From Nitrospirota bacterium (GTDB lineage Bacteria; Nitrospirota; Thermodesulfovibrionia; Thermodesulfovibrionales; SM23-35), in assembly GCA_040753955.1 (NCBI GenBank), contig JBFMDQ010000004.1:5889-69888 (forward strand): a stretch of DNA of 64,000 nucleotides, written 5' to 3'. The position numbers were made by a program, and so were the translations under genes. Under the pieces are notes generated by a model. That model did no database searches and had not been told where the DNA came from. It was given only the letters and a program-made list of their open reading frames with translations. Shown here piece after piece: positions 5,778 through 63,032 of the stretch; position 1 is the first letter of the stretch, and each line of letters starts with the position of its first letter.

Positions 5778-7902
5778 ATATAAATTTTATATTAAACCCT
5801 AACCTTCTCTCATCACCAAAATCAAGCTTTTTCACGAATAGAAATGCTGTGCCCTGATAGATTCTCTCCACACCCTGCTCTGAAAGGGATATGGTCTCTA
5901 CAGGATAGTGCCAGAGATCTATCTCTTCATCAAAATTATAACCAATGCTGAGGTTCAAAGACTCATCCTTCAGATAAAACTCCTTAACATCACCATGGGT
6001 TCCCTTGTTCCTTATAGGGAGATTTTTATCACCCACAAGGATGGAAGAATAGGGAGAGCCGAAAAAGGAGATGTTAAACTCTACAGCAAAAAGTCCGGAA
6101 AATACACCATCAATTTTGTAACCTACCCTCAGTTCCAGAGGCATAGTTAATCTCAATGTCTTCAGAAGTTTTAAAGGATTGCCATTCACGATACCCTTTC
6201 TAAAAAGGTCCACGGTAACAGTATCTCCCTCTTTAATGTAATTCAATGAATAGATACCTTCAATGAAGTCACCCTGTTCCTCATACCTGGAATGCATCAG
6301 ATCGTCAACATTTGTGCCGTCCCTCAGAAAATGGTCAAGGAGTGATGCCCGCCTGTAATTGTCATAGACCATATAATCGATGATGTCTACTTCTTTTACA
6401 ATGAACTGTTCATGAATAGTCCTCGTCTCACCTGTATTAGAAACTGATGCCTGCGCGATCCTTGAATGGTAGGCCTCGGGCCTCCTCGCAATGATGTCAA
6501 GTATATTAATAGCCTTTTCCTTCAGAGATAGTTCTCTAAGGCTACCCCCCTGTTCTGTTAGCGAAAGTGAGATATCCCCCTCGCTAATATAAATATCTTC
6601 AAAACCATCACAATCATAGTCAGACCTTTCTACAGTTAATTTCTCACTAAGTACGCCTTCAGCTATGCCCTCTGCCCTCAGGAGATGCCTGTAAAGGGAT
6701 GACCTCAGGTGAGGCAGATAAAGTCCGCCAAAGATGCCGTGCCAGTAGGCATCATTACATTGGCCCTTCCAGAGCTCATGCAATAACCCCCCTATTTCCC
6801 CCCTTAGTAAGGGGGGAAATGAAGGGGGGTGAACGTTTAACTTTGAACTTTCAACTTTTAACTTTTTTATTGCTCTATGTACTTTTTTACTTATCATTAA
6901 CATGCGTTTCTGGATGTGGTTTGACTCAGGATATTTTGCGAAAAAGGAACGCCATATCCCACCTCTCAGGAGGCTCTTTGCCTTGTCCCCTATCAATCTT
7001 TGCATCTCCCTCAATGCATATTCATAATCGAGTGCCCTTTCAGGAGGAAGCACCCACTCACCCATTTCCCTGTATGATGCTGTGGGAAGATAAACCCTCC
7101 CTACAGGCCGAAACCGAGAATGATAGTCGCTGAATGTTGTCGTCTCTATCCAGTCAGAATTTTCTTCAATGGCATTAAAGAATCTTTCAAGCCAGCCATC
7201 TTCATAGCAGTGCTTGTAGGTTCCAGGCCATACACCAAACTTTTCTCCATCATCTGCCATTGTAAGCAATGGTTTGCCACCCCTCATGTGTATCTCTCCG
7301 GAGTATGAGAGAATTTCATCAATATTCCTGAAAGGTATATAATATCTCAGTTTCTCGCTACCTGGAAATACGCTGAGCTTACAGCCTTCTTCTTCTGTGA
7401 TGTAATAGCCTAAAAGGTCTTCCTCTTCAAGACCTGAAAGCTTGAAATGATAATCATCAACCGGCACATACTCGATGCCAGCTGTCGAGATATATTTTGG
7501 CATCTGTGGTTCCCATACCCTCTCTGCCAGCCACATGCCCTTTGGTGAATAGCCGAGGAGCTTTTTGATATACCCGGAGAGTTCCTTTATCTGAGATACC
7601 CTGTCCTTTTCCGGAATCGCGGAGAGTATTGGCTCGTAAAAACCTCCCGAGAGTATCTCGACCCTTTTCGCCGAGACGAGAGAATGGATCATTTCAAGGG
7701 CTTCGGGATGGCGTTTTTCAAACCATGAGAGGAGATTACCCGAATAATGAAGCACAACCTTTAATGAGGGATGAAGGTTGAGGACTTCGAGAAAAGGCAG
7801 ATAAGCCTTTCTATAAGATTCCTCAAATATATGTTCGAAATTTCCTACAGGTTGATGATTATGGATTGCAAGGATTAAATAGAGCTTTGAATTATTTACC
7901 AG
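5767..7902 (-). CDS. glycoside hydrolase family 57 (alpha-glucan processing enzyme); probable CTG start
   Basis: GH57 hallmarks: HNHQPVGNF (encoded upstream of the ORF-track start), WLAERVWEP, CNDAYWHGIFGGLYLPHLR. The frame is open from the TAA at 7923-7921, and the conserved N-terminus KLYLILAIHNHQP lies at 7890-7756. The only plausible start is CTG 7902-7900, 6 nt after GGAGGA (7914-7909). Confidence 0.8.
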   Translation of the reverse strand: MVNNSKLYLILAIHNHQPVGNFEHIFEESYRKAYLPFLEVLNLHPSLKVVLHYSGNLLSWFEKRHPEALEMIHSLVSAKRVEILSGGFYEPILSAIPEKDRVSQIKELSGYIKKLLGYSPKGMWLAERVWEPQMPKYISTAGIEYVPVDDYHFKLSGLEEEDLLGYYITEEEGCKLSVFPGSEKLRYYIPFRNIDEILSYSGEIHMRGGKPLLTMADDGEKFGVWPGTYKHCYEDGWLERFFNAIEENSDWIETTTFSDYHSRFRPVGRVYLPTASYREMGEWVLPPERALDYEYALREMQRLIGDKAKSLLRGGIWRSFFAKYPESNHIQKRMLMISKKVHRAIKKLKVESSKLNVHPPSFPPLLRGEIGGLLHELWKGQCNDAYWHGIFGGLYLPHLRSSLYRHLLRAEGIAEGVLSEKLTVERSDYDCDGFEDIYISEGDISLSLTEQGGSLRELSLKEKAINILDIIARRPEAYHSRIAQASVSNTGETRTIHEQFIVKEVDIIDYMVYDNYRRASLLDHFLRDGTNVDDLMHSRYEEQGDFIEGIYSLNYIKEGDTVTVDLFRKGIVNGNPLKLLKTLRLTMPLELRVGYKIDGVFSGLFAVEFNISFFGSPYSSILVGDKNLPIRNKGTHGDVKEFYLKDESLNLSIGYNFDEEIDLWHYPVETISLSEQGVERIYQGTAFLFVKKLDFGDERRLGFNIKFIYDS
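6787..6829. repeat. 43-bp nested polyC/polyG palindrome (copy in GH57)
   Basis: Structure C6-TATTT-C6-TTAGTAA-G6-AAATGAA-G6. It is followed at 6830-6880 by AACTTT-type short repeats. Translated on the - strand as KLKVESSKLNVHPPSFPPLLRGEIGG. Confidence 0.85.
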
Positions 7903-7908
7903 AGAGAA

Positions 7909-7914
7909 TCCTCC
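7909..7914 (-). promoter_or_regulatory. Shine-Dalgarno GGAGGA for the GH57 CTG start
   Basis: GGAGGA followed by a 6-nt spacer (TTCTCT) and CTG. No ATG/GTG/TTG occurs in frame between the upstream stop and codon 50. Confidence 0.55.
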
Positions 7915-8080
7915 AAAAGTTATTTATTTTTAATTTAATTATAACACAGTTCATTTTTAACGGAAGACAAGCTTAAGATTGATGAAAAAAAATTTGAATT
8001 GTAATGATATAATAAGTCACTTTAAAGAATGGGTAACACTTTTATGGGTTAACCCTTAAGTTGAGAGATCGGGAATAGAA

Positions 8081-8959
8081 ATGAAAGGTATAATCTTGGC
8101 TGGAGGCTCGGGGACAAGATTACACCCTGCTACCCAGGTTGTGAACAAACATCTTCTACCTATATATAACAAGCCCATGATTTATTACCCCCTTTCTACC
8201 CTTATGCTTATGGATGTGATAGATGTCCTCATTATCTGTAATAAAGAAGATTTAGAAGTTTATAGAAAACTCTTCTGGGACGGTTCCAAAATGGGAATTA
8301 ATATATCTTACAGGATTCAGGAAAAGCCGAGAGGTCTTGCAGAAGGATTATTACTTGCTGAAGATTTTGTGGAAGATGATGATGTGTGCATGATCCTCGG
8401 AGACAATATATTCTTTGGTCACGGGTTACCCGATCTCTTATTGGAGACACGAAGAGATCTTGAGAAAAATGGGGGAGCCATAATATTCGCCTACTGGGTC
8501 CATAATCCGAGAAAGTATGGTGTTGTTGAGTTTGATGAAAAAAGGGGTGTTCTGTCCATTGAAGAGAAGCCTAAACACCCCAAGTCAAACTGGGCAGTGA
8601 CAGGACTTTACTTTTACAATAATAAAGCTGCTGAGATCGCAAAAAATATCAGGCCTTCTCATAGGGGAGAGCTCGAAATTACAAGTGTAAATGAAGAATA
8701 TCTAAAAAGGGGAGAATTGAAAGTAAAACTCCTGGGGAGAGGTTTTGCATGGTTTGATGCCGGCACTTACGACAGCTTTTTGGAGGCGAGCGATTTCATA
8801 GCGACTATCGAAAATAAAACGGGGCTTTTGATTGGTTGTATCGAAGAGATTGCTTATAGAAAGGGGTGGATGAACAAGGGTCAGCTAATAAAGCTCGCCC
8901 AGCCATTGAAAAAGACAGAATATGGGGGATATCTTCTTAAGATAGCAGAGGAGAAATAA
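8081..8959 (+). CDS. rfbA: glucose-1-phosphate thymidylyltransferase
   Basis: [17 protein letters not shown]-terminus, full-length RmlA-like 292 aa, first gene of the rml set. Confidence 0.95.
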
Positions 8960-9532: not shown

Positions 9533-9576
9533 AGTGAAAAGATTCATAGGTTTTCAGAACATCTTTTTACACAAGT

Positions 9577-9683
9577 GTCATTCCCGCTTGTCGGGAATCT
9601 TTCTTCTGTTGTTACGCTTTAAAGAAGGATTTCGGACAAGCCCCGTTAGAAAGTTTATTTCTAACGGGGTAAGCCGAAATGAC
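9577..9683. repeat. GTCATT...AATGAC-bounded palindromic element (rfbC-rfbD spacer)
   Basis: GTCATTCCCGCTTGTCGGGAAT ... CCGAAATGAC. Internal hairpin CCCCGTTAGAAAGTTTATTTCTAACGGGG (9641-9669). Confidence 0.7.
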
Positions 9684-9720
9684 AGAACCCCATGGGCTTA
9701 AAGGGTCTAAACTACAAATT

Positions 9721-10557: not shown

Positions 10558-10567
10558 CCTTTCAACC

Positions 10568-10593
10568 GTCATTCCCACGAAAGTGGAAATGAC
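10568..10593. repeat. minimal GTCATT...AATGAC hairpin (rfbD-rfbB spacer)
   Basis: GTCATTCCCACGAAAGTGGAAATGAC, which is the termini only. Confidence 0.7.
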
Positions 10594-11605: not shown

Positions 11606-11606
11606 G

Positions 11607-14811: not shown

Positions 14812-15614
14812 TTAAAGATTTCCGTAATTATCACAGTCTTTGATGGAGTTTGCGTTTTCTAAAGAATATCAAAAATAGTTATTTTTAACAGTTTTTGCTA
14901 AACTAAAATATTCTTTATTTATGCTATTTAAACTGCATTTAGGTATATATATCGTTGCTGTCCAAGATATTTTGAAATATGGTTCTCTTATTTTGGACAA
15001 GTCTTTATTATATATATTAAACAATGGGCTTTTTATGCCCCTTTAAAAAAATTATTTGCAATGCATGAATTCAAAGACGTTAAAAAAATCCTTGTTATAA
15101 AACTCAGGCACATTGGAGATGTCGTTCTTTCCATACCTGTGTTCAGGGCTTTACGTGAAAATTTTCCAAAAGCGCATATTTCAGCCTTTGTGAATTCAGG
15201 TACAGAGGATGTACTGACAGGGAATACACTTATTGATGAGATAATAGTATTTGATAGAAATATCAAAAAGATGAATCCTTTGCAGAGATATATTAACGAG
15301 CTACTATTCTTGAAATCAGTTAGGAGGAGAAAATTTGATATGACAGTTGACCTCACAAGTGGAGACAGGGCGGCGATAATATCCCTTGTTTCAGGTGCAA
15401 AGTACAGGCTTGCATACGATCCTGGCAAAGACGGGTTTTTGGGAAAGAAATATCTTTATACCCATCTTGCAAAGAAGGATGGTAGTCAGCATATGGTACT
15501 ACAGAATCTTGGCGTTGTCAGGCATTTTGGAATAAACACAGAAAATCTTTCTGTAGATTTTCATATTCCAGAAAAAGACAGGGTCTGGATTAGAAAAGTC
15601 CTTGAAGAAAATAA

Positions 15615-15653
15615 CCCCCCCTTACCCCCCTTTACTAAAGGGGGGACGGGGGG
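15615..15653. repeat. polyC/polyG palindrome (39-bp variant) at the first frame break of the GT9 gene
   Basis: Structure C7-TTA-C6-TTTACTAAA-G6-AC-G6. Frame-1 reading is NPPLPPFTKGGTGG*. Confidence 0.85.
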
Positions 15654-15840
15654 TTAAGGAATACTGTTGTACACGTTCATCCGACATCAAGGTGGCTATT
15701 CAAATGCTGGAAAGATGAGTATATGTCAGAAGTGATAAGCTGGCTTGTTGAACAGGGGGTAAAGGTAACAGTGACATCCTCGCCTGATAAAAGAGAAATG
15801 GAAAAAGCAAAGAGAATTTTGTCTTTAATCTCCGAATTTA

Positions 15841-15883
15841 CCCCCCCTTTGCCCCCCCTTGGCAAGGGGGGGCAAAGGGGGGG
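15841..15883. repeat. 43-bp perfect nested polyC/polyG palindrome at the second frame break of the GT9 gene
   Basis: Structure C7-TTTG-C7-TTGGCAA-G7-CAAA-G7. Reading is TPPLPPLGKGGQRGGN* (frame 0) or ARGGKGGVI (frame 1). Confidence 0.9.
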
Positions 15884-16189
15884 TAATTGACCTGTGTGGT
15901 CAAACTACCATAAAACAACTTGCTGCAATCTCAGAGGCATCTGACCTATTTCTTGGAGTTGATTCTGCTCCGATGCATATAGCGGCTGCTGTAGGGACAT
16001 CTGTTATCGCCCTTTTTGGTCCGACAGGTGAGGCCCAGTGGGGGCCATGGGGAGACAGGCATGTGGTTTTAAACAAGATAGAGTCGTGCACTGATTGCAA
16101 GTTTGACGTATGCGAGAATGCCGGCGTAAGGAAATGTCTTGAAATTATAACGGTGGAGGAAGTTATTACTGCCATTACAAAGATATTGA

Positions 16190-17290
16190 ATGGATAAAAA
16201 CTTTACAAACCTGATAGTTAAAGCTATTATAACTATCTCACAGAAACTAAATATTCCTGCAAGAAATGTAAGAAATCCCACTTCTCCATCTTTTCTCATA
16301 ATTTGTCAAACAAGGGTTGGAGACACTGTATTTTCGTTGCCAGCTATTAGGGCCTTACGGGAAGAGTTTCCGCAAAGCTATATTGGAATATTAACAAACT
16401 ATGTAGGGTTGGAGATATTTAAACATAATCCAGATATTAATGATATTTTTGTCCTTAAAAAGGAAGGAATATGTATTTATCATCTCTTTCCGTCTTAAAA
16501 CTGATGAGAAAGAAGCATATAGATACTGTATTTGTATTCAATGCCGTTGACCGCATTATATGGCCATTATGCTTTTTTACCGGTGCATCGCAGATAGTCG
16601 GCTTGCATGGGCAGAATAAGGGACTTGATTTCCTCCTCACACATATTGTTCATCTGCCAGAAGGGTTACATGCTGCAGAATGGAGACTTAAATTGCTTGA
16701 GCAGATAGGCATTATAAAATCCAGTGCAGCAGCTTCAATTTATCTATCTCAAGATGAGAAAGAACAGATGAGGCAATTTTTATGTAACAATGGCATATCA
16801 GAGAAAAAGCCATTAATTGGGTTTCACCCCGGCGCAGATGGTTTATATAGATGCTGGCCTGCTGAAAAATTCATAGAGGCTGGTAATATATTAACAGAAA
16901 GATTAAGTGCACAAATCGTTATTACAGGGGGGCCTGGCGAAGGAGATTGGCTAATATAATTGCTTCTGCGATAAAAGGCGCTATATCTTTTGCTGGAGAG
17001 CTCTCTTTAAGAGATACTATTGCGCTTATAGAGAGAATGGATTTGTTTATTGTCGGCGACACTGGCCCTATGCATATAGCAGATGCACTAAGAACGCCAA
17101 TGATAACCCTCTTTTGTCCTTCCGAGCCCAAAATAACCGGGCCTTATCACGCAGAGAAGGCAATAATAGTAAAAAAACCATGCCGTGTAATCCGTGTAAA
17201 TTAACTAATTGTAATAATAATTTTTGTATGGAGCAAATAACTGTAGAAGAAGTTGTTAATCACGCCAGAAGATTACTGTGTAAAGAGTAG
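16190..17290 (+). pseudogene. decayed GT9 heptosyltransferase-family paralog (three frameshifts)
   Basis: Four collinear fragments in frames 2,1,0,2 (16190-16498, 16471-16959, 16947-17204, 17171-17290). They align end to end with the intact neighbour 17295-18422, e.g. DRIIWPLCFFTGASQIVGLHGQNKGLDF vs DRIIWPISFLTGAAEIIGIEGQNKGLDF and CMEQITVEEV vs CMEQIKVEEV. Confidence 0.8.
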
Positions 17291-17294
17291 AGCC

Positions 17295-18422
17295 ATGAGA
17301 AAATTACATCAAAAAACCAAAAATTTCGCAATTAAAACAGTTATAAATCTGATAAAACAGATGAATCTTGTTGACATAAATTATTGTGCAGTACCATCCA
17401 AATTCCTTGTTATCAGTACTACTGGCATCGGAGATACACTATGGGGAACTCCTGCAATCAGGGCATTAAAGGAAACCTATCCCGAATGTTATATAGGAGT
17501 TCTGACAAACCCTGCAGGATTTGAGCTCCTTCGGGAGAATCCGAACATAGATGGGCTGTTCATTTTCAGAAGGGGATTAAAGGGAATTCTTTCATTACCA
17601 ATCCTGTTAAGGGCACTCAGACAGAAAAGGTTTGAAATAGTTTTTATATTTCATGCCTCTGACCGTATTATATGGCCAATAAGTTTTTTAACAGGAGCAG
17701 CCGAAATCATTGGCATTGAAGGACAGAACAAGGGGCTTGATTTTGTGCTTACACGGAGACTCGCACCACAGAATAATATACATGGTATAGAGGCAAGATT
17801 AAACCTTATTAATTTGATAGGAGCCGAAACTTCTAATAAGAGCATCTCTATTTATTTAACAGAGAAAGACAGAGAGACAGCTGAAAGATTTTTAAGAGAT
17901 AATGGTATTACTCAGGATACATTATTAGTGGGTCTTCATCCGGCTGCACAGAAGCCTTTTAAATGCTGGCCTCAGGAGAATTTTATAACTCTTGGGAATA
18001 CACTTACAGAAAGATTTAAATGCAGAATTATAATAACCGGTGACTCTGGGGAAAAGGCACTGGCTGATATGGTATCTTTAAAAATAAATGATTCAATCAC
18101 TTTCGCAGGGAAATTAACTATCAGAGAGACCGCAGCATTGATAGAAAGATTGAATATATTTATTACCAATGATACAGGTCCCATGCATATTGCATTTGCC
18201 CTGAAAACACCCACTATAGCCCTCTTTTGCCCGACAGACCCCAAGCTCTGTGGTCCTTATCATACAGAAAGAGTTGTTATAATAGAAAAACCAAAGACAT
18301 GCAATCCATGCATCGGGAAAAAATGTGATACCCCCAGATGTATGGAGCAAATTAAAGTTGAAGAGGTACTGGAATCAGTGAAATCTTTATTAAACTCAAA
18401 GATCAGGGACAATATAAAATGA
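17295..18422 (+). CDS. GT9 glycosyltransferase (heptosyltransferase family), intact
   Basis: GIGDTLWGTPAIRAL N-domain, NDTGPMHIAFALKTPTIALFCPT C-domain, CNPCIGKKCDTPRCM tail. ATG 17295 chosen because the ORF-track TTG at 17253 overlaps the pseudogene tail. Confidence 0.8.
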   Translation: MRKLHQKTKNFAIKTVINLIKQMNLVDINYCAVPSKFLVISTTGIGDTLWGTPAIRALKETYPECYIGVLTNPAGFELLRENPNIDGLFIFRRGLKGILSLPILLRALRQKRFEIVFIFHASDRIIWPISFLTGAAEIIGIEGQNKGLDFVLTRRLAPQNNIHGIEARLNLINLIGAETSNKSISIYLTEKDRETAERFLRDNGITQDTLLVGLHPAAQKPFKCWPQENFITLGNTLTERFKCRIIITGDSGEKALADMVSLKINDSITFAGKLTIRETAALIERLNIFITNDTGPMHIAFALKTPTIALFCPTDPKLCGPYHTERVVIIEKPKTCNPCIGKKCDTPRCMEQIKVEEVLESVKSLLNSKIRDNIK

Positions 18423-38582: not shown

Positions 38583-39464
38583 TTATTCAGCTGTTACAAT
38601 CGTTAAGAAACCTATGAACATCAGCATTGCTCCGGAAAGCCTATCCCTTATATTTTCTTCTTTAAAAAATAAAAAACCATATAGAACCCCGATAATAAGG
38701 CTCATCCTTTTTATGGATATTACATAGGCTACCTTTGCAAGGCTTATTGCAACCATATGGGATACCACCATAAGAGAGTAAAAAATACCTGGCAGAAGAA
38801 GTGCATGGGGGAGACGTTGTCTCCCCCATGAGCCCCCTAAATCTTTCCCCCCCTTATACAACGCGATGGGTGTAAAGAGGAGAGTTAATACTGTGAAGTA
38901 AGTAATCCCGAAAAACAGGGGTGAAGAATGCTCTATAGCCATCTTGCCGAGTGATGAAGTGATACTGTAAATCAGTGCAACACCTATCATCAAGATCGAG
39001 CCTCTCTCTTTTATTATTGCCCTGATGGGCTCAAATAACCCCTCCCTAATTTTGCCAATATTCAATGTATAGCTTCCTGATGCAATTAAAAGGATACCTA
39101 CACTACCCCGCAAAGAGACTCTCTCACCGAGTATGATATAAGAGACAAAGATAAGGAATACAGGAGTAAGAGCAAGGAAAGGAAGGGTAAGACTTAACGG
39201 CGAAAGCTTCAGGGCCTTTATATATAAAACTATCGATAATATCTCCAGTGGCAGAGAAAGTAAAAAGGCAGTATAAAAAGCCCTATCAAGCTCAGGCACA
39301 GGTATAAATAAAAAGATGACGAACAACAGGGGCAGTGAAAAGATAAGCCTTAGCCATGCAACTATATACTCATTACTGGAGGTAAGGGCCTTCTTGGTAA
39401 GGGCATCGCTTGTTGCAAGTGTAAAGGCAGATATTAATGAAAGTAGTACCCATGAATAATCCAT
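38583..39464 (-). CDS. EamA/DMT-family transporter
   Basis: 10-TM profile, two EamA-like halves, 293 aa. Confidence 0.75.
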   Translation of the reverse strand: MDYSWVLLSLISAFTLATSDALTKKALTSSNEYIVAWLRLIFSLPLLFVIFLFIPVPELDRAFYTAFLLSLPLEILSIVLYIKALKLSPLSLTLPFLALTPVFLIFVSYIILGERVSLRGSVGILLIASGSYTLNIGKIREGLFEPIRAIIKERGSILMIGVALIYSITSSLGKMAIEHSSPLFFGITYFTVLTLLFTPIALYKGGKDLGGSWGRQRLPHALLLPGIFYSLMVVSHMVAISLAKVAYVISIKRMSLIIGVLYGFLFFKEENIRDRLSGAMLMFIGFLTIVTAE

Positions 39465-39693: not shown

Positions 39694-42219
39694 ATGATAG
39701 AAAGCATTTTGCAAAAATTCACCACAAAGTATAATTTTAAAACCATGTATAGAGACCCAAGGATATTCTTAGTAATATTCCTGTGCTCCTTTTCGAGCCT
39801 TGCCTATGAGATAGCCCTCACGAGGATATTTTCTGTCTCCCTCTGGTACCACTTTGCTTTTATGATAATAAGTATTGCCATGCTTGGCATCGGTGCAAGC
39901 GGGACATTACTATCCCTCTATCCTAAACTTAGAAGCCTATCCAATATCGGTATTTATAGCCTGTTGCTCGGTACCGGAATATCTCTGAGTTATCTTTTTT
40001 CAAATCAGATACCCTTTGATCCAGTGAGGCTTTCTTGGTCAAGGATGCAGTTGCTTTATATCGGTCTCTACTACGTAACACTCTCGATGCCATTTTTCTT
40101 CACAGGATTGATCATCGCCACAGCATTCTCCTGTATAAGCGAGAAATCAGGTATGATTTATGGTGCAGACCTTCTCGGTGCAGGTATAGGCTCAATAGGA
40201 ATCCTGTATCTCATGACAATCACAGGGCCTGATAAGGCTGTTTTTATCCTCTCTTCAATCGTACTCATGGCATCATTCATTATCGGCAAGAAAAGGCTGA
40301 AGGCAATCTCTCTGGTATTAATCTTACTTAACCTTTCTGCTCTGTTCTTTCAACCTGTATTTATTAACCTCAGGATGTCTCCATACAAGGGGCTTCAGGT
40401 AGCCCTGAGATATCCTGAAGCAGAACATTTAAAGACCTATTTCAGTCCCTTCTCAAGGATAGACACGTTTAAGAGCCCTGTAGTGCGTTTTGCCCCTGGC
40501 CTGAGCCTCAGGTATCTTGATAAACTCCCTGAACAGATAGGGTTTTCAATAGACGGAAGCGAGATAAATGCTATAACAGCTTTCCATGGGGGGATCCCCC
40601 AAAGGGGAACGGAGTCCCCCTTTGGCACTTTTCTTAGATACCTGCCATCTGCACTCCCCTATGAAGTAAGCGTAGGGGAGGATGTATTAATCCTTGACCC
40701 AAAAGGAGGTCTTCAAGTCATCGTTGCAGCTCATTACAGCTCAAAAAATCTCTATAAGGTCGAGTCCAATCCTCTCTTGATAAAAATCATCAGGGATGAA
40801 TTCAAAGCCTTTTCTGGCAATATCTACAGGGACGATACATGGTCAGGGCTCGGAAGGTCGTGGCTCAAGTCAGGTTACAAGAAATTCGATATTATCGACA
40901 TCTCATTGATGGGTTCAGCACCCTCTGGTTCTTTTGGAATATCAGAGGACTACAGGTCTACTGTTGAGGCATTCATGGAATACATAGGCCATCTAAAACC
41001 GGAGGGGCTTTTGAGCATAAACCTCTTTATATTACCGCCTCCACGAATAGAATTGAGACTCATAAATACCATTATTACAGCTATGGAGGAGCTCGGGATA
41101 AAAGATATGGAAAAACAGGTTGTAGCTATTCGAAGTTGGGGAAGTATGTGTATTCTCATAAAAAGATCACCCTTTACCCTTAATGAGATAGAGGCTATCA
41201 AGGAGTTTTCAAAAGACAGACGGTTCGATTTAATACACTATCCGGGCATCAAAGAAGAGGAGGCAAACGTCTATATTCGAATGCCCTCAAATGAATATTT
41301 CACTGCCTTTAAAAATATCCTGAATCCCGAAACACGTACAGGGTTTATACATGATTATATCTTTGATATAAGCCCTGTCCGTGATGACAGCCCATTTTTT
41401 CATTATTATCTCAAACTCAAAAACATCAAGGAGACCTATAAAATTATGGGGGAAAAATGGCAGTATTTTATAGAAGAAGGATACATCCTTCCAGTGATCT
41501 TCATGCAGGTAATGTTTTTAAGCCTGATTCTTATAATTCTCCCGGCCTTATCAAGAAAATCATATGTCATTGCGAGGAGGTCGTTTCGACCGACGAAGCA
41601 ATCCCAACAGCAAATACTAAGAGGCAAAGACGAGATTGCTTCGCCCCGTATTGAATACGGGGCTCGCAATGACATGGGAAAAAGGTTTTTACCTTATTTC
41701 GCCTTCCTAGGTCTCGGATTCATGTTTGTAGAGGTGTCTCTGATCCAGAAGATCATCCTTCCCCTTGAAAACCCCTCCTATGCAGTCGCTACCGTCCTCA
41801 CATCAATCCTCATAAGTTCAGGTATCGGGAGTCTATTGAGTCACAGGGTTTCAGGTCTCAGAAGCCCCTCTGTAACAATCGCTCTCTCCTTTCTTATCAT
41901 CCTTTACAGCGTTCTTCTCCCATCTATCCCAGATATAATTTCTCCTTATTCGATACCGGTAAAGATTATCTCTGTATTCTTCATCCTCATGCCGCTCGGC
42001 CTTCTCATGGGTATCCCCTTCCCCGCGGGTCTGAAAATCCTCGGTGAGAAGAATGAATCATTAATCCCCTGGGCATGGGCGATAAACGGTTGCCTATCAG
42101 TCCTCGCACCTATCCTGACTATTATGTTAGCAATAGTCATCGGGTTCAAAATGGTCCTCTGGCTGGGGGCATTAACATATGTGATGGCGTTTGTATTTAT
42201 AAAGAAATTTGCCTCATGA
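39694..42219 (+). CDS. polytopic membrane protein with central spermidine-synthase-like domain; carries two intragenic repeat insertions
   Basis: The N-terminal TM block LAYEIALTRIFSVSLWYHFAFMIISIAMLGIGASG is typical of membrane-fused spermidine-synthase-like proteins. Soluble central domain, C-terminal TM block. Repeats at 40588-40625 and 41566-41673 are read through in frame. Confidence 0.6.
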   Translation: MIESILQKFTTKYNFKTMYRDPRIFLVIFLCSFSSLAYEIALTRIFSVSLWYHFAFMIISIAMLGIGASGTLLSLYPKLRSLSNIGIYSLLLGTGISLSYLFSNQIPFDPVRLSWSRMQLLYIGLYYVTLSMPFFFTGLIIATAFSCISEKSGMIYGADLLGAGIGSIGILYLMTITGPDKAVFILSSIVLMASFIIGKKRLKAISLVLILLNLSALFFQPVFINLRMSPYKGLQVALRYPEAEHLKTYFSPFSRIDTFKSPVVRFAPGLSLRYLDKLPEQIGFSIDGSEINAITAFHGGIPQRGTESPFGTFLRYLPSALPYEVSVGEDVLILDPKGGLQVIVAAHYSSKNLYKVESNPLLIKIIRDEFKAFSGNIYRDDTWSGLGRSWLKSGYKKFDIIDISLMGSAPSGSFGISEDYRSTVEAFMEYIGHLKPEGLLSINLFILPPPRIELRLINTIITAMEELGIKDMEKQVVAIRSWGSMCILIKRSPFTLNEIEAIKEFSKDRRFDLIHYPGIKEEEANVYIRMPSNEYFTAFKNILNPETRTGFIHDYIFDISPVRDDSPFFHYYLKLKNIKETYKIMGEKWQYFIEEGYILPVIFMQVMFLSLILIILPALSRKSYVIARRSFRPTKQSQQQILRGKDEIASPRIEYGARNDMGKRFLPYFAFLGLGFMFVEVSLIQKIILPLENPSYAVATVLTSILISSGIGSLLSHRVSGLRSPSVTIALSFLIILYSVLLPSIPDIISPYSIPVKIISVFFILMPLGLLMGIPFPAGLKILGEKNESLIPWAWAINGCLSVLAPILTIMLAIVIGFKMVLWLGALTYVMAFVFIKKFAS
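40588..40625. repeat. G/C-tract palindromic hairpin inside the 841-aa membrane protein gene
   Basis: GGGGGGATCCCCC overlaps the hairpin CCAAAGGGG-AACGGAGTC-CCCCTTTGG. Translated in frame as HGGIPQRGTESPFGT. Confidence 0.7.
41566..41673. repeat. 108-bp MITE-like element with perfect 11-bp terminal inverted repeats, inserted in frame (36 codons)
   Basis: Termini GTCATTGCGAG ... CTCGCAATGAC. Internal inverted pair GAAGCAATC/GATTGCTTC and hairpin CCCCGTATTGAATACGGGG. Flanked by AT on both sides. Translated as VIARRSFRPTKQSQQQILRGKDEIASPRIEYGARND. Confidence 0.8.
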
Positions 42220-55814: not shown

Positions 55815-56783
55815 ATGAAACCTACATTCATTCACAGGCTGATAAATAGCCCTTTTGAAGACCCCTCTCTTTTTATCAGGATAATAAGGGAAAGGAGGGC
55901 ATTTTTATTTGACATAGGCAGCATAGACAGACTTAAACCCGGTGATTTGCAAAAGATAACGGACGTCTTTGTAACGCATACGCATATAGACCATTTCATT
56001 GGATTTGATACACTTCTCAGGGCACTCCTCAGGAGGGAGAGGCCTCTGAGGATATATGGCCCTCCAAATATAACGGACTGTATAGAGGGTAAGCTAAGGG
56101 GCTACACATGGAATCTTGTAAAGGAATATCCTCTGAAGATAAAGGTCTTATGCATAAAGGGAGATAAAATAATCACCTCAAGCTTTCATGCCGAAAACTG
56201 CTTTGAGAGGATAGATAATGGTGTATCCGATTTCAATGGTACCATCTTAAGGGAGCCTTTATTCGGGGTAAAGGCTATCCAGTTAGACCATCAGGTGCCG
56301 TGCCTCGCCTTCTGCCTCGGGGAAGAATTTCACATTAACATAAATAAGGCTACCTTAATAGAGAGGGGACTTCCCGTTGGGCCATGGCTTTCAGAACTGA
56401 AAAGGGCTATCAGGGAGCAAAAATCAGGGGATACAGAGTTCATAATCTCTAACAGGGGATATAAGCTCGAAGAGTTGAGAGACATCGCAAAGATAACAAA
56501 AGGTCAAAAGGTCTCTTATGTCACTGATGTATCCTTAGATGACGAAAATATTAAAAAAATTGTTGAGTTTGTGCACGACTCTGATACACTTTACTGTGAG
56601 GCCTATTTCCTGGAAAAAGACAGAGACAGGGCATTGGAGAGGTTCCACCTTACAGCAAAGGCCGCCGGAAGGATTGCAAGAGAAGCGAAGGTCAAGAATC
56701 TTATCGTCATGCATTTTTCACCTAAATATAGAAGACAGCCAGAAACCCCAGAGGATGAGGCAATTAGGGAGTTCAAAGGCTAA
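55815..56783 (+). CDS. MBL-fold metallo-hydrolase (RNase Z/BN-like)
   Basis: HTHIDH metal-binding motif, 322 aa. Confidence 0.7.
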   Translation: MKPTFIHRLINSPFEDPSLFIRIIRERRAFLFDIGSIDRLKPGDLQKITDVFVTHTHIDHFIGFDTLLRALLRRERPLRIYGPPNITDCIEGKLRGYTWNLVKEYPLKIKVLCIKGDKIITSSFHAENCFERIDNGVSDFNGTILREPLFGVKAIQLDHQVPCLAFCLGEEFHININKATLIERGLPVGPWLSELKRAIREQKSGDTEFIISNRGYKLEELRDIAKITKGQKVSYVTDVSLDDENIKKIVEFVHDSDTLYCEAYFLEKDRDRALERFHLTAKAAGRIAREAKVKNLIVMHFSPKYRRQPETPEDEAIREFKG

Positions 56784-56824
56784 CCCCGCCATCCTCCCCT
56801 TAGTAAGGGGAGGTTAGGGAGGGG
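56784..56824. repeat. degenerate member of the polyC/polyG palindrome family in the convergent MBL/fabF gap
   Basis: CCCCGCCATCCTCCCC-TTAGTAA-GGGGAGGTTAGGGAGGGG, with the same TTAGTAA loop as copy 6787-6829. It overlaps the last fabF codons (..KTPP*) and is a possible bidirectional terminator. Confidence 0.65.
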
Positions 56825-58022
56825 TCTTGAAAACCAGCACCGCATTTACTCCACCGAAGCCGAAGGAATTAGATATAGCAGCCTCGATCTCGGCCTTTCT
56901 TGGTTGCCTCACATAATCGAGGTCACATTCAGGGTCACTTTCCTCCAGATTGATTGTAGGCGGGATAACTCCTTCATTTATACCCATTAGGGTGAAGGCT
57001 GCCTCAATGGCCCCCGATGAAGCAAGCATATGACCTGTCATGGATTTCACGGAGCTTACAGGGATGTCCTTTGCCTTTCTACCAAATACAATTTTTATCG
57101 CCTCTGCCTCTGTCTTATCACCAAGGGGTGTTGATGTGCCATGGGCATTAATATAGTCAATATCTTCAGGTCTCAACCCTGCCTCATCTATTGCCAGTCT
57201 CATCGCTTTCGCCTCACCCTCAGATAGGGGTATTGTTTGGTGAAATGCATCTGTTGTGTTACCATACCCTGCAATCCCTCCATAAATATTTGCACCTCTT
57301 TTTAATGCACTTTCATAATCTTCTATTACAAGAATGCAAGCGCCCTCTGCAATAACAAAACCATCCCTTGTCCTGTCAAAGGGCCTGCTCGCTGTAGAAT
57401 CATTAACCTTAGATAAAGCACCTGATACACCATATCCTTCAACACATACCCTGCATACAGGAGCCTCGGTACCACCACATAGCACAGGACCTCGATAGCC
57501 TGACTTGATTAACCTATATGCCTCACCTATTGCATTTGTGCCTGAGGCGCAGGCATTAGATATACCGAGACAGTAGCCTTTTATGCCCAGTTTCTGAGCA
57601 ACATAGGATGAGGCCATGCTGATTGTTGTTGAAGGCATAAGATAGGCAGATATGCGTGACGACTTAAGACTATTGACTATCGACTGTTCTATTGTGCTTA
57701 TTCCGCCGCGGCTTGACCCAATAATAACACCACCTAAAGTCAAATAGTCGTTTATCAGTCCTGCATCTTCCACAGCCATCATTGATGCAGCAACAGCATA
57801 ATGCACGAATGGGTCAAGACGGTTTATCTCTTTTTGAGAAAGATACTCCCCTGCATCAAATCCTTTTAATTCCCCTGCTACCTTCCATCTCATCTCAGAG
57901 ATATCAAATCTCCTTATAGGCCCTATGCCTGATGACCCGGCCTTTGCAGCCTTCCAGGACTCATAAAAGGAATTGCCGAGGGGACTAACAGCCCCGATAC
58001 CAGTAACAACAACCCGATTCAC
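56814..58022 (-). CDS. fabF: beta-ketoacyl-ACP synthase II
   Basis: VVVTGIGAVSPLG, active-site NACASG, HGTSTPLGD and GHMLASSG motifs. Confidence 0.85.
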   Translation of the reverse strand: MNRVVVTGIGAVSPLGNSFYESWKAAKAGSSGIGPIRRFDISEMRWKVAGELKGFDAGEYLSQKEINRLDPFVHYAVAASMMAVEDAGLINDYLTLGGVIIGSSRGGISTIEQSIVNSLKSSRISAYLMPSTTISMASSYVAQKLGIKGYCLGISNACASGTNAIGEAYRLIKSGYRGPVLCGGTEAPVCRVCVEGYGVSGALSKVNDSTASRPFDRTRDGFVIAEGACILVIEDYESALKRGANIYGGIAGYGNTTDAFHQTIPLSEGEAKAMRLAIDEAGLRPEDIDYINAHGTSTPLGDKTEAEAIKIVFGRKAKDIPVSSVKSMTGHMLASSGAIEAAFTLMGINEGVIPPTINLEESDPECDLDYVRQPRKAEIEAAISNSFGFGGVNAVLVFKTPP

Positions 58023-58835: not shown

Positions 58836-58887
58836 TGGTATCTTAATAAAAGAAGGCGAGCAAATAAGGATTAAGGTCTCGATAGCC

Positions 58888-58972: not shown

Positions 58973-58991
58973 AATTTTAACTTGTTACTGC

Positions 58992-61664
58992 TTAGTGCGC
59001 CTCTACCCAGTTTTCCCCGCAACCGATATCTACTCTTATAGGCACAGAAAGCCTTATTACACCTTCCATCTCCTTTCTGACAATATCTGTAGCGACTCCG
59101 AGCTCCCGCATGGGAAGCTCGAATAAAAGTTCATCATGAACCTGCAGAATCATCCTTGCCTTCAAACCTCTCTCTTTAAACCTCTTCCATATATTTATCA
59201 TCGCAATTTTAATAATATCTGCTGCTGTTCCCTGCACAGGAGAGTTTATCGCAAACCTCTCACCCTGCTGTCTTATATTTGAGTTCTGGTTTTTTAGCTC
59301 TGGAATGAAACGCCTCCTTCCAAATAGTGTTGCCACATAACCCCTATTCCTTGCACCCTCGAGGGTTTCCTCTATATACCATTTGACGCCAGGGTGTCTA
59401 TTAAAATACTGCTCTATATATTTTCTTGCATCATCTCTGGATATACTGAGGGTTTCTGATAACCCGAATGGCGATATACCATAGATAACCCCGAAGTTTA
59501 CTGTCTTTGCAATCCTCCTCATATCGGGAGTGACTTTATCTATTGGAATACCAAAGAGCTCGGATGCTGTCCTTGCATGTATATCGAGGTCATTTCTGAA
59601 GGCCTCAAGAAGACCCTCGTCCTGACTCAGATGGGCAAGTATCCTTAATTCAACCTGTGAATAATCTGCTGAAAGCAGGATATTACCTTCTTCTGCTATA
59701 AAGGCCTCTCTTATACGCCTGCCCCACTCTCCCCTGATCGGGATGTTCTGTAGATTCGGCTCGCTGCTGCTTAGCCTTCCCGTAGCTGTTGCTGTCTGGT
59801 TAAAGAAGGTATGTACCCGCCCCGTCTTTAAATTTACTAAGCGAGGCAGCACATCCACATAAGTAGTTTTTAGTTTACTCAGACTCCTATAATTGAGTAC
59901 CTCTCTGGGGAGTTCATGGGATTCTGCGAGTTCTTCAAGTACACTCAACTCCGTAGAATAACCTGTCCTTGTCCTTTTAGTTGGTTGGAAACCGAGACTT
60001 TGAAACAAAACCCTGCTAAGCTGTTTTGGTGAGTTTATGTTAAACTCTTCTCCTGCAAGAAAATATATCCTCCTCTGAATTCCATCAAGCTCTCTTTCAA
60101 GCTCCTTTGAGATTCCCTCGAGTTTATTAGAATCAATTTTCACTCCTGCCTCTTCCATATCGGCAAGTACATAAACAAGGGGCATCTCTATATTAAAATA
60201 AATATTTTCAAGATCATTTTCTCTGAGTTTACTGAATAGTATCTCTTTTAGTTCAAGGCTGAGACTTACATCCTCAGCCACATAGGGGGCGGCCTCTTCT
60301 AAAGGAACCTCTGAAAATGAACTTCTCTTTCCCAGAACCTCCGCAAAGGTCTTTTTCCTATACGATAGATATTCCAGTACAACCTCTTCGAGACTGTGGT
60401 TAGGTTTGTTTGGATTAATAAGGTACGATGCAATCATCGTGTCAAACAATGTTCCTTTAATATGAATGCCATCCTCTTTTAGAATTAAAATGTCATATTT
60501 GAGATTATGCCCTATCTTTGATATCCTTCCGTCTTCGAAGATCTTGGTAAACTCCCATGATATATCCTTCCTATTTATCTGAACGGGCACTCCAGGATAC
60601 GAATGGGAAACAGGGATATAAAAGGCGTGACCTTTCTCTATGCATAATGCCAGGCCAACAAGGCTGTCAGTTATAAGATTTCTGCCTCCGCCTGAGGTGG
60701 ATGCCTCGGTGTTAAAAGAAAACTCTCCGCCTGCGGATTCTATTAATGTGACTATCTCCTTGAGCCTTTCAAGGGAAAGAACTATTTCATATTCCCTTTC
60801 TCTGGATTTTACTGGGATGAGCTTCATAAGGCTACCGAATTCAAATTCCCTGAATAAGGAAAGGAGATGAGGCCAGTCAGGCTCTTTTAATCTGAATTCT
60901 TCCATATCAATATCAAGAGGCACAGATGTGTCAATGGTCGCAAGTTTCTTACTTAACCTCGCTATATCAGCGTTTTCGGACACAAGCAGCCTCAACTTAT
61001 CTTTTTTTATCCTGTCTGTATTATTCAGCAGGTCATCAAGGTTTTCAAACTCTGAAAGAAGTCCTTTAGCTGTCTTTTCACCAATACCTTTAATCCCCGG
61101 GATATTATCAACCGTATCTCCTGTAAGGGCCATAAAATCTGTAATCCTTTCAGGCCCGACGCCGAATCTCTCTTTTATGTATTCTTCACCGAGGATTCTA
61201 TCCTTCATCGGATCGTAAATCTTAATGCCTCTATTAACAAGCTGGAGCATATCCTTATCTCCGGTAACGATGAATACATCTATTCCTTCAGATGCTAAGC
61301 TCTTTGCAACTGTACCGATGAGGTCATCTGCCTCATAGCCAGGCATCTCGAATATCTTTATTTTAAAGGCAGAAATCAGCTCCATTATATGTGGCATCTG
61401 CTCCACAATCCCTCGAGGGGTTTCGGGCCTGTGGGCCTTGTATTCTTCAAAGATTATGTGCCTCTTTGTTGGGATAGGTGAATCAAAAGATACGGCAATG
61501 CCGTCTGGTTTCTTTTCCCTGATGATTTTAAGGAGCATATTTGTAAAGCCATAGATGGCATTGGTAGGGAATCCCTGTGATGTTGAAAGCTCTTTTATAG
61601 CATAGTAAGCCCTATAGGCATAAGAGTTTCCATCAATAAGATAAATAGTCATGGTGTTTGACAA
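58992..61664 (-). CDS. polA: DNA polymerase I
   Basis: 5'-nuclease N-terminus, 3'-5' exonuclease-like middle, and polymerase motifs (DYSQVELRILAH, KTVNFGVIYG, QVHDEL). Confidence 0.95.
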   Translation of the reverse strand: MSNTMTIYLIDGNSYAYRAYYAIKELSTSQGFPTNAIYGFTNMLLKIIREKKPDGIAVSFDSPIPTKRHIIFEEYKAHRPETPRGIVEQMPHIMELISAFKIKIFEMPGYEADDLIGTVAKSLASEGIDVFIVTGDKDMLQLVNRGIKIYDPMKDRILGEEYIKERFGVGPERITDFMALTGDTVDNIPGIKGIGEKTAKGLLSEFENLDDLLNNTDRIKKDKLRLLVSENADIARLSKKLATIDTSVPLDIDMEEFRLKEPDWPHLLSLFREFEFGSLMKLIPVKSREREYEIVLSLERLKEIVTLIESAGGEFSFNTEASTSGGGRNLITDSLVGLALCIEKGHAFYIPVSHSYPGVPVQINRKDISWEFTKIFEDGRISKIGHNLKYDILILKEDGIHIKGTLFDTMIASYLINPNKPNHSLEEVVLEYLSYRKKTFAEVLGKRSSFSEVPLEEAAPYVAEDVSLSLELKEILFSKLRENDLENIYFNIEMPLVYVLADMEEAGVKIDSNKLEGISKELERELDGIQRRIYFLAGEEFNINSPKQLSRVLFQSLGFQPTKRTRTGYSTELSVLEELAESHELPREVLNYRSLSKLKTTYVDVLPRLVNLKTGRVHTFFNQTATATGRLSSSEPNLQNIPIRGEWGRRIREAFIAEEGNILLSADYSQVELRILAHLSQDEGLLEAFRNDLDIHARTASELFGIPIDKVTPDMRRIAKTVNFGVIYGISPFGLSETLSISRDDARKYIEQYFNRHPGVKWYIEETLEGARNRGYVATLFGRRRFIPELKNQNSNIRQQGERFAINSPVQGTAADIIKIAMINIWKRFKERGLKARMILQVHDELLFELPMRELGVATDIVRKEMEGVIRLSVPIRVDIGCGENWVEAH

Positions 61665-61718
61665 AGTCTCGCTATTATTTTAACATTAAAATATTAATAA
61701 AAATTCGAGGAGGAAAAA

Positions 61719-63032
61719 TTGCTCCAGGTGGTAGAAGATATCAGTCCGACAAAGAAGCGTCTCAGGGTAGAGATTCCATCAGACGTGATCGAAAAGGAGA
61801 TAAAGGATTCTCTCGAAAGGTTAAGACAGAAAACTAATATACCGGGGTTCAGGCCTGGCAGGGCTCCAGTTAATCTAATAGAAAAACGCTTCGGCAAAGG
61901 GGTTGAAGCAGAGGTACTTGATAAGGTAATCTCTGAATATTACAGCAAGGCATTAAAAGAAGCTGAACTCATACCTGTAACAATGCCTGTATTTGATGAG
62001 AAGCTTGGCTTTAAAAGAAACAATCCACTTAATCTTTCATTCACGGTTGAAGTGATGCCGAAGATTGAGAATCTTAATTACGAAAATATAAAGATAAAGG
62101 ATATTCCTATAGTTGTCGATGAGGCTGAGGTAGATGATTACATTAAAAAACTCCAGGATAAAAAGGCTATATATGAAGTTGCTGAAAAAGATGTAGATAT
62201 GGATGACCTTGTCACATTTGAGTATGTAGACTGTAAAATGATCGGGGAAGAAAGCCCCCCATCCATAAAGGAACAGATATTGAAGATGGGTAAAGAGATA
62301 TTCCCCCTGGACATAATGGAAAGAGTGATGGGGAAGAAAAAGGGCGAGGTAGTGGAGTTCACTACCACATTCAATGAAGGTTGTAAGTCAAAAGAACTTG
62401 CGGGAAAGACGGTTGATATGAAAGTTATGATAAAGGAGGTAAAGCAGAAAATCCTACCGGCAATTGATGATGAATTTGCAAAGGATCTTGGTTTTGAAAA
62501 TATCTTGGAATTGAGAGAAAGGATAAAAGAAGATATATATAAAGCTAAAAAAGAACAGGCTATGAAAATCCAGAAGGCAGAGATTCTCCATAAGATTATT
62601 GAGCCCCATGATTTTGAGGTACCAGAAACCCTGCTCAGAAATGAGCTGGAATCCCTTATGATGCAAGAAAACACCCCCCTCACTCCCCCCTTACCAAGGG
62701 GGGAATTTAAGGGGGGTGATGCTGGCAGCCCAGAACAGGAAAAAGAGGATGTCGAAAACTTACAGGCTAAACTGAAACATAAGGCATTGAGGAACGTACA
62801 GGCATCGATAATTATAGATGCCATAGGCCAAAAAGAGGAAATCGCAGTAACAGAAGATGAAGTGAAGGATCGAATCCATTTTATAGCGGAAAGGCTCTCG
62901 GCCAAACCAGAGGTTGTCATGAAATTCTACATAGCGAGAGATGGCTCTCTGGAAGGCCTGAGGCATTCGATCTATGAGGATAAAGTCCTGGATATGCTTT
63001 TGTCCAAAGCCATTTCTGAGAAAGGAGAGTAG
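61719..63032 (+). CDS. tig: trigger factor (carries a 43-bp palindromic insertion)
   Basis: N-terminal ribosome-binding GFRPGRAP motif, PPIase-like middle, tig-clpP-clpX synteny. TTG start. Confidence 0.9.
   Translation: MLQVVEDISPTKKRLRVEIPSDVIEKEIKDSLERLRQKTNIPGFRPGRAPVNLIEKRFGKGVEAEVLDKVISEYYSKALKEAELIPVTMPVFDEKLGFKRNNPLNLSFTVEVMPKIENLNYENIKIKDIPIVVDEAEVDDYIKKLQDKKAIYEVAEKDVDMDDLVTFEYVDCKMIGEESPPSIKEQILKMGKEIFPLDIMERVMGKKKGEVVEFTTTFNEGCKSKELAGKTVDMKVMIKEVKQKILPAIDDEFAKDLGFENILELRERIKEDIYKAKKEQAMKIQKAEILHKIIEPHDFEVPETLLRNELESLMMQENTPLTPPLPRGEFKGGDAGSPEQEKEDVENLQAKLKHKALRNVQASIIIDAIGQKEEIAVTEDEVKDRIHFIAERLSAKPEVVMKFYIARDGSLEGLRHSIYEDKVLDMLLSKAISEKGE
62674..62716. repeat. 43-bp nested polyC/polyG palindrome (copy in trigger factor)
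   Basis: Structure C6-TCACT-C6-TTACCAA-G6-AATTTAA-G6. Translated in frame as TPLTPPLPRGEFKGG. Confidence 0.9.

Follow-up and report, generated by a model that had tools for sequence, protein, structure and literature searches.

What are the short palindromes of poly-C and poly-G runs that interrupt genes in a 64-kb stretch of a Nitrospirota genome, and how did they come to lie there? The stretch (64,000 nucleotides of contig JBFMDQ010000004.1, assembly GCA_040753955.1; hereafter the window, with positions counted from its first letter) derives from a metagenome-assembled genome (MAG) and contains five copies of a small double hairpin. Comparison of about 140 copies from many genomes indicates that the hairpins are probably a very small, non-autonomous palindromic insertion element, similar in kind to repetitive extragenic palindromic (REP) sequences and Rickettsia palindromic elements (RPEs). 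The anatomy and distribution of the element are solid; the mechanism of its spread and the common ancestry of all carriers are less settled.

The window holds four copies that match a strict pattern and one that is degenerate. The strict copies have the architecture C6-7, spacer of 3-5 nt, C6-7, loop TTnnnAA (once TTTACTAAA), G6-7, spacer of 2-7 nt, G6-7, and all five copies lie within genes or at gene ends. Copy 1 (6787-6829, 43 bp; C6 TATTT C6 TTAGTAA G6 AAATGAA G6) is in frame within a GH57 gene, where the - strand reads HPPSFPPLLRGEIGG. Copies 2 (15615-15653, 39 bp; C7 TTA C6 TTTACTAAA G6 AC G6) and 3 (15841-15883, 43 bp; C7 TTTG C7 TTGGCAA G7 CAAA G7), the latter a perfect odd-centred palindrome, are in a GT9 heptosyltransferase gene whose frame shifts at the first and shifts back at the second. 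The degenerate copy 4 (56784-56824; CCCCGCC AT CCTCCCC TTAGTAA GGGGAGG TTAG GGAGGGG) occupies the convergent junction of a metallo-beta-lactamase-fold (MBL) gene and fabF. Copy 5 (62674-62716, 43 bp; C6 TCACT C6 TTACCAA G6 AATTTAA G6) is in frame in tig, the gene for trigger factor, and encodes residues 319-333 (TPLTPPLPRGEFKGG). On re-reading of the window, the coordinates and sequences of all features listed in a first-pass annotation, made from the DNA letters, were correct, as were its quoted translations of the GH57 and tig copies and the length of exactly 43 bp that it gave for three copies.

These structures are not expected from the composition of the window (G+C ~42%). The strict pattern gave no match in 100 dinucleotide-preserving shuffles, and a tolerant scorer, for which five of six C or G per tract suffice, recovered the same four copies plus 56784-56824 and no others (none in shuffles). 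Runs of at least six C or G are uncommon elsewhere in the window: of 27 in all, the four strict copies account for 16. Predicted DNA folds of all five copies are hairpins (-15.5 to -30.9 kcal/mol, z = -3.5 to -7.5), with copy 3 at -30.9 kcal/mol and z = -7.5. A sixth feature that the first-pass annotation had related to the family, at 40588-40625, does not belong to it: the tract order is G..C..G..C rather than C..C..G..G, the fold is no better than that of shuffles (z = -1.4; 24 of 200 shuffles equally stable), and the tolerant scorer also missed it.

An empty site was identified in a close relative. Contig L124 (GCA_030019415.1, Thermodesulfovibrionales; L-numbers denote the contigs or loci compared and P-numbers homologous proteins) is syntenic with the window from 55.7 to 64 kb, with 93.4% DNA identity over 8,104 aligned bases, and lacks both hairpin copies of the shared ~8 kb (MBL/fabF and tig). 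At the MBL/fabF junction it shows a clean 38-bp gap relative to window positions 56787-56824, with well conserved flanks; the empty site is GGCTCAACC^TCCTGAAAACC and has no C- or G-run. In the window, the TAA stop of the MBL gene (55815..56783, + strand) directly adjoins copy 4, and the last codons and stop of the fabF-type beta-ketoacyl-ACP synthase gene (56814..58022, - strand) are in its right arm. The two genes overlap in L124, and the insert provides a new MBL stop and the last fabF codons, the latter as had been stated at first pass. The absence of these copies from a 93%-identical relative implies recent gain or loss, and the view that the window copies are recent insertions is supported by comparison with orthologous sequences.

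Two conserved genes of the window show what insertion does to a protein. The first-pass annotation held that tig and GH57 keep an open frame across the element, which is correct; the two GT9 copies each have a ±1 shift in a G-run. When 120 homologues of tig (61719..63032, + strand) were aligned, a TPLTPPLPRGEFKGG-like peptide was present in about a dozen, with nothing comparable in the rest; the closest homologue (P0002, 83% identical in amino acids) lacks it. An AlphaFold2 model of the window trigger factor has a mean pLDDT of 79 and drops below 50 in one segment only, residues 320-337, which form a coil linking helices 303-316 and 338-372 of the C-terminal domain. Residues 319-333 are thus predicted to form part of a low-confidence coil between helices, consistent with a surface loop, and model and alignment agree with the earlier assignment of the site to the variable linker of the C-terminal arm. 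The GH57 gene (alpha-amylase / 4-alpha-glucanotransferase; 5767..7755, - strand; Pfam PF03065, PF09094, PF09095) encodes a middle domain of 98 residues versus 78 profile positions in the Pfam alignment, the extra residues appearing as insertions. The insert lies directly before LLHELWKGQCNDAYWHG, in a hypervariable stretch that is empty in basal 691-aa homologues, and the site is as first described, just before a conserved block. A polyC/G-type peptide occurs here in 4 of 120 homologues, and most lack it. One orthologue (L054) has a copy at the same junction, before LLHELW, with flanks 82% identical to the window in DNA. In the alignments of 120 homologues each, no tig or GH57 orthologue was seen with the same peptide encoded by non-palindromic codons.

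Other small inserts were found at these sites. The same tig linker in relatives (P0003-P0109; L124 ~6780-6850) contains other recurrent short inserts, SDARYKPAPASEARPGMQD and ESGI(M/T)HPTSE, the latter encoded in L124 by a TCTGATG...CATCAGA palindrome, making the linker an apparent hotspot for small palindromic elements of several kinds. Most close GH57 homologues have a different, A+T-rich palindromic insert at the GH57 site (…KVKKSKKTFNSKLLTPN…), and in the window AACTTT-type hexamer repeats that encode KKLKVESSKLNV adjoin the hairpin (6830-6870). Downstream of clpP, opposite window position ~63652, L124 has a 43-bp AACTTTTAACTTTT insert. The AACTTT-type repeats, the A+T-rich GH57 insert and this L124 insert seem to represent a second family of small repeats in the clade, in frame or intergenic. 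The GH57 open reading frame (ORF) also extends upstream (~7756-7925, - strand) via NNSKLYLILAIHNHQP, without ATG, GTG or TTG. The L054 orthologue starts with MSKLYLIL, and the window has AAT where L054 has ATG; the NCBI product is 718 aa.

The GT9 gene raises the question of whether the runs themselves are correctly known. GT9 heptosyltransferase #1 (15061..16197, + strand), host of copies 2 and 3, is divided into three frames (15061-15657, 15654-15890 and 15859-16197), and the breaks fall exactly in the last G-run of each hairpin copy. One extra G at 15648-15653 and one G fewer at 15877-15883 give a single 378-aa GT9 ORF, in which copy 3 would read ...KGGQRGVIDLCGQ. This corrected ORF can be aligned over its full length (52% identity) with an intact L073 orthologue, in which an in-frame copy of another subtype occupies the window's first GT9 site. 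The offsets could reflect a decaying paralogue or pseudogene, homopolymer slippage in the population, or a consensus miscall. A second GT9 paralogue (16190-17290) is itself interrupted, away from any hairpin, and falls into four overlapping frames (16190-16498, 16471-16959, 16947-17204 and 17114-17290); a third (17253-18422) is intact. This combination favours decay or low consensus quality in the lipopolysaccharide (LPS)-core cluster. Alternative G-run alleles of the GT9 site were sought in metagenome contigs, with no match. Phase-variable homopolymer tracts are known in surface-glycan glycosyltransferases of Neisseria, Haemophilus and Campylobacter. Like such contingency loci, the GT9 copies place G6 or G7 runs in an LPS-core gene, each one base off the in-frame length. 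Contingency loci differ in that their tracts are single, usually at least 8 nt long and outside palindromic repeat families, and the neighbouring GT9 paralogue here appears simply decayed.

To find the element elsewhere, we searched 185,579 species, each represented by one genome, with the strict pattern and obtained at least 120 loci; the cross-genome counts that follow are of the matches listed. By record title, ~68 loci are cyanobacterial, ~30 are from Nitrospirota and 9 from Planctomycetota, with 2 from Nitrospinota, 2 from Calditrichota and single representatives of further groups. Finished or isolate genomes with the pattern include Crocosphaera watsonii WH 8501 (complete genome, NZ_CP191777), Scytonema HK-05 (AP018194), Nostoc NIES-4103 (AP018288), Baaleninema PCC 7105 and Microcoleus isolates, so the architecture is neither an artefact nor specific to one lineage. 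The orthologue alignments show the segment to be an insertion in tig, GH57 and GT9; the family itself crosses phyla rather than being lineage-specific. Phage were rejected as the vector, as only 3 of 2.9 million viral contigs carry the pattern. Two loci have labels at odds with their sequence. L073, labelled as a Methanobacteriota archaeon, is Nitrospirota-like DNA (77% identical to the window GT9 region), and L068, labelled Pseudobdellovibrionaceae, is 99% identical to Nitrospirae contig L030. Both are probably mis-binned contigs in public MAGs.

This distribution bears on the possibility that the hairpins are an assembly or sequencing artefact. The window does come from a MAG, two GT9 G-runs are one base off, and the neighbouring GT9 paralogue is broken in several frames. 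Such an origin is nonetheless scarcely credible, given that finished or near-finished isolate genomes and hundreds of independent assemblies share the architecture, that copies are inherited at orthologous sites, and that they show an in-frame bias (below). The element as artefact is refuted, and the sole doubtful part is the exact run lengths at 15648-15653 and 15877-15883.

Across ~140 copies the element is 31-47 bp long, mostly 36-44 bp. Tract sets of six and of seven both occur, with frequent deviations of ±1, and spacers are very heterogeneous in length and sequence. The spacers are perfectly complementary in just 11 of 139 copies; most hairpins thus contain an internal loop, often asymmetric (7/5, 6/5, 7/3). 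Among the spacer pairs that recur are TTTAATT/ACATA in Nitrospirota and phage L123, and TTTCAT/ACAGA in Cyanobacteria and Planctomycetes. The first C-run is preceded by A or T and the last G-run followed by T or A, these bases being complementary in 86% of copies, and many cyanobacterial copies have the flanks GAT|...|ATC. Flank complementarity exceeds the control at positions 1-3 alone and is at background by position 4. Insertion at the centres of existing palindromes was therefore rejected as a general rule, although individual copies resemble loop insertions (GH57 and the ~140-nt element described below). The length from tract to tract, taken modulo 3, showed no pattern as a predictor of residence within genes.

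We also considered that the double hairpin arose by self-nesting of a single C6-loop-G6 unit, and rejected this because true singles are rare: the non-double matches number 24, mostly three-tract variants, versus 139 doubles. Cyanobacterial three-tract variants of the form GAT-C6-TAA-C6-TTnnnAA-G7-ACAAGA, without the outer G-run, were identified at L014 1441-1480, L014 2324-2363, L065 776-815 and L104 1400-1440. They may be a related subfamily or decayed copies.

Once present, copies can be inherited. At three orthologous sites with flanks 81-97% identical (L022/L113, L028/L051 and L043/L060), the copies differ by one or two substitutions and in tract length, which fits vertical inheritance. 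Copies were also identified inside another repeat. Seven Nitrospirota hairpins occupy the apical A/T-rich loop of a ~140-nt (130-160) structured multi-copy element (L005 5542-5702; L008 2172-2329; L010 1205-1364; L055 2346-2506; L067 2055-2231; L087 6894-7051; L099 7343-7523). At least 15 clear copies of this element in metagenomes have no hairpin (e.g., L127 4765-4891 and L233 206-332), and thus the hairpin is an add-on to another repeat. The ~140-nt element has the invariant core GAGCGG..TTTTGCCGATA..GAGGCAAAA..GAGAATGAGCGAAAATAC and a covarying outer stem (double compensatory changes in 17 of 31 pairs), and one MAG contains three copies whose stems differ. No Rfam family matched the element. 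With a model made from it, the hairpin-bearing copies score 67-103 bits, and nothing convincing was found in the window. The ~140-nt element is either a non-coding RNA or a structured mobile repeat.

How do copies within genes relate to the reading frame? Well inside long ORFs (at least 40 codons) are 74 of the 135 listed copies (55%); the other 45% are intergenic, at gene ends or frame-breaking. Where at least 60 open codons lie on both sides, 68 copies keep the frame and 12 break it, versus a chance expectation that one third would keep it. Thus, we infer that intragenic copies are read through rather than removed, and those that keep the frame are evidently translated, as judged from this bias. 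The count of copies inside and outside ORFs over these loci, together with the homologue alignments and the tig model, agrees with the first-pass proposal that in-frame palindromic insertions are tolerated as extra loop peptides. Host proteins elsewhere include UvrA (L007), topoisomerase I (TopA), ValRS, GH57, a phosphoenolpyruvate-utilising enzyme with three copies, Ser/Thr-kinase, AAA and His-kinase proteins, and TnpB. Five cyanobacterial loci have TnpB (IS605 OrfB-type) as host: the copies are in frame at L066 6803-7477, L088 2478-3761 and L075 1734-3050 (two copies), and frame-breaking at L018 7033-7403 and L029 3059-4502. TnpB may be a host because insertion sequence copies have been amplified, because selection on it is relaxed, or because the hairpin is linked mechanistically to IS200/IS605.

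Copies show no orientation bias with respect to the coding strand (38 vs 30, p = 0.40), and all three codon phases are used (28/30/19), with peptides that differ by phase and orientation. A copy has on average 3.9 of six frames open, versus 4.7 in composition-matched shuffles and 3.6 in random genomic 41-mers. We therefore rejected the idea that the element is built to be stop-free in all frames; with an open-frame count no better than expected, it is not specially designed for ORFs. Might the peptide PPLx(K/R)GG..GG nevertheless be the selected unit, as a Pro/Gly hinge or interaction motif, with the DNA palindrome incidental? The same peptide classes do occur in many proteins. A Pro-then-Gly peptide needs no palindrome, yet the arms pair, the loop is the palindrome centre and both strands give like peptides. 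Further, the copies outside genes, at gene ends or breaking the frame amount to 45%, some are inside the non-coding ~140-nt element, and the three phases yield different peptides. Selection of the peptide is thus very improbable as the explanation.

The heterogeneity of the spacers leads to another possibility, that each hairpin originated locally (by template switching or hairpin-primed repair where C- or G-runs already existed, or by break repair with non-templated C or G) and that the likeness across phyla is convergence. Such an origin would suit the lack of target-site duplications, tags or an associated gene and a flank complementarity that reaches 1-3 nt only, and a pattern search would gather convergent look-alikes. 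We think it rather improbable. The empty L124 site contains no run to seed the process, the four-tract order, TTnnnAA loop and A...T flanks are common to 140 copies, and the single-hairpin precursors that it would require are rare. Specific long asymmetric spacer pairs also recur within and between clades, and identical copies occur twice in one phage contig and within single genomes.

A further possibility is that hosts keep the hairpin as a functional nucleic-acid signal (a cruciform, a protein-binding site, or an RNA hairpin for pausing, mRNA stability or termination), spread by selection. Consistent with this, the C/G tracts and TTnnnAA loop are invariant where spacers vary, asymmetric internal loops recur (the two spacer pairs above), and the hairpins are very stable. 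Copy 4 has a compensated C>T / G>A change in its inner arms (CCTCCCC/GGGGAGG), which indicates that pairing is maintained, and many copies lie where genes end or converge, as at MBL/fabF. However, the genes and positions that hold copies are unrelated, and either orientation and every phase occurs; two copies are missing from a 93%-identical relative, and most tig and GH57 orthologues lack theirs; and the tract invariance of the cross-phylum set is imposed by the search pattern. No U-tract follows the copies. Rfam identified one tRNA in the window at the gathering threshold and nothing else, the hairpins giving sub-threshold, generic miRNA-hairpin matches only. A host signal is therefore unlikely.

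In the reading that we regard as probable, a mobile palindromic element, the unit of 36-46 bp consists of A|C6-8 and C6-8 parted by a T-rich spacer of 2-8 nt, the loop TTnnnAA, and G6-8 and G6-8|T parted by an A-rich spacer of 2-8 nt; it folds as a two-step hairpin with a usually asymmetric internal loop. The maintained pairing in copy 4 and the stable folds fit this reading as well. By analogy with REP/RAYT and IS200/IS605, the element would be transposed in trans as a hairpin-forming single strand by the product of a gene located elsewhere, for which an HUH/Y1-type or another structure-specific nuclease is the most plausible candidate. Copies would land in either orientation and any codon phase, and be gained and lost on a short time scale. 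About four of six frames are stop-free, with C- and G-runs encoding Pro/Leu/Ser and then Lys/Arg/Gly, and a copy whose total length keeps the frame would add a flexible Pro/Gly loop of ~14 aa. Selection may retain a copy only at sites that the protein can accommodate (linkers, surface loops and gene ends), and slippage by ±1 in the four homopolymer runs may restore or break the frame, as in the window GT9 gene. The copies are presumably selfish or neutral rather than functional.

Several findings weigh against this proposal. No mobilising gene was identified: those that recur among the 2,107 neighbouring ORFs (windows of up to 8 kb around copies) are common families, together with TnpB genes as hosts, and include no Y1-transposase-like family. 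The copies have no terminal tags; a GTAG, GTGG or CGTC tag lies within 8 nt of at most 1 of 141. Nor do they have a target-site duplication of consistent form: 81 of 141 copies are without any direct repeat, and the sole enriched class is a 2-nt AT/TA repeat (cyanobacterial AT..AT; 44 of 141 vs 18 expected). The spacers at some orthologous sites are far more diverged than the flanks (e.g., window versus L054 in GH57), which could be due to repeated insertion, conversion or fast decay. The junction is known base by base from one site, MBL/fabF, and what points to translation is frame conservation.

Do all carriers share one family? A single ~40-bp hairpin family could move within genomes and between phyla (Cyanobacteria, Nitrospirota, Planctomycetota and occasionally phage) by a structure-specific mechanism, unlike that of RAYT/REP systems, in which no duplication is left behind, and we regard this as a tentative possibility. 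Near-identical long spacer sets link Planctomycetes (L006, L004 and L049) to Scytonema (L020) with 1-2 mismatches. Against it, such cross-phylum pairs are few, and skewed composition would give ~1-2 of them by chance. The tracts and TT..AA are prescribed by the search pattern, and a shared origin of every match is therefore not proven.

Comparison with known elements places the hairpins near, but outside, described families. The first-pass annotation named RPEs as the best-known precedent and knew of no described family of this type. We likewise found no description of the architecture, of intragenic palindromes of this type or of the encoded peptides in the searchable literature (which did not cover Elhai 2008). 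RPEs are summarised as ~100-150 bp elements of Rickettsia only, with a conserved family-specific peptide (Ogata et al. 2000, in PMC10969869 and PMC3733652). As far as these summaries describe them, RPEs resemble the hairpins in being palindromic repeats in frame in unrelated, often essential genes, tolerated at permissive sites and with no transposase within the element. The hairpins differ by the same accounts in having four homopolymer runs, in using several phases and orientations, and in a length of 36-46 bp, below that which defines RPEs. Their carriers are Nitrospirota, Cyanobacteria, Planctomycetota and others rather than Rickettsia, the distinction being drawn from the summarised descriptions.

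REP and REPIN sequences are mobilised by RAYT (TnpA-REP) HUH-Y1 transposases, and intragenic GTAG/CGTC REPs are known (Di Nocera 2013, PMC3733652; Quentin 2018, PMC6006769). Like the hairpins, REPs are imperfect, bulged hairpins (20-65 nt) with high copy number, cross-phylum occurrence and occasional in-frame residence in genes such as uvrA, UvrA being a host here too. The hairpins differ in the near absence of the 5' tag (at most 1 of 141), in not being predominantly extragenic (55% well inside ORFs), in lacking a doublet (REPIN) organisation, in their homopolymeric arms, and in that no RAYT gene was seen beside the ~140 copies within the same neighbouring windows. The element therefore lacks defining features of both RPEs (length, taxon) and REPs (5' tag, extragenic habit). 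It is also shorter than miniature inverted-repeat transposable elements (36-46 vs 70-300 bp) and is without a fixed-length target-site duplication.

The small dispersed repeats (SDR1-8) that Elhai and colleagues are said to have described from Nostoc and relatives are reportedly hairpins of 21-27 nt, confined to a coherent cyanobacterial subgroup. They are also said to be nested in other repeats and mini-transposons, with SDR5 inside HIP1. On this description, the SDRs resemble our hairpins in their tiny size and occurrence in cyanobacteria, and may do so in nesting: some hairpins lie in a structured repeat, and the GAT|...|ATC flanks of many cyanobacterial copies form a GATC/HIP1-like core. 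The present hairpins are longer, have the double C/double G architecture and occur in several phyla, a comparison made by description only. In fungal mitochondria, mobile GC clusters, double-hairpin elements and byp elements are short G+C-rich palindromes dispersed through A+T-richer genomes, some of them in protein-coding genes. Those are organellar and unrelated in sequence, and byp is skipped by the ribosome. Unlike byp, the strong in-frame bias of the hairpins argues for ordinary read-through.

If the hairpins are a mobile family, in-frame palindromic "gene decoration", so far known mainly from the RPEs of Rickettsia and a few tagged REPs, extends to free-living Cyanobacteria, Nitrospirota and Planctomycetes. 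The family provides a simple sequence signature by which loop insertions peculiar to a lineage can be found in UvrA, TopA, ValRS, trigger factor and many signalling proteins. It also poses the mechanistic question of how a 40-bp hairpin with neither REP tag nor target duplication is moved. In annotation of MAGs, copies can give spurious frameshifts, split gene calls and odd low-complexity segments; they are also useful as strain-level markers. Should there be a single cross-phylum family, it would be among the smallest mobile elements known and a general source of Pro/Gly loops in essential proteins. The four slippage-prone runs could then tune or toggle the host frame, as the offset copies in the LPS heptosyltransferase gene hint.

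One further hairpin of the window is separate from this family. It is a perfect hairpin at 38807-38827 (GGGGGAGAC GTT GTCTCCCCC), within an EamA-family transporter gene (38583-39464, - strand). More C-runs follow it up to 38853, and its architecture differs from that of the polyC/polyG elements.

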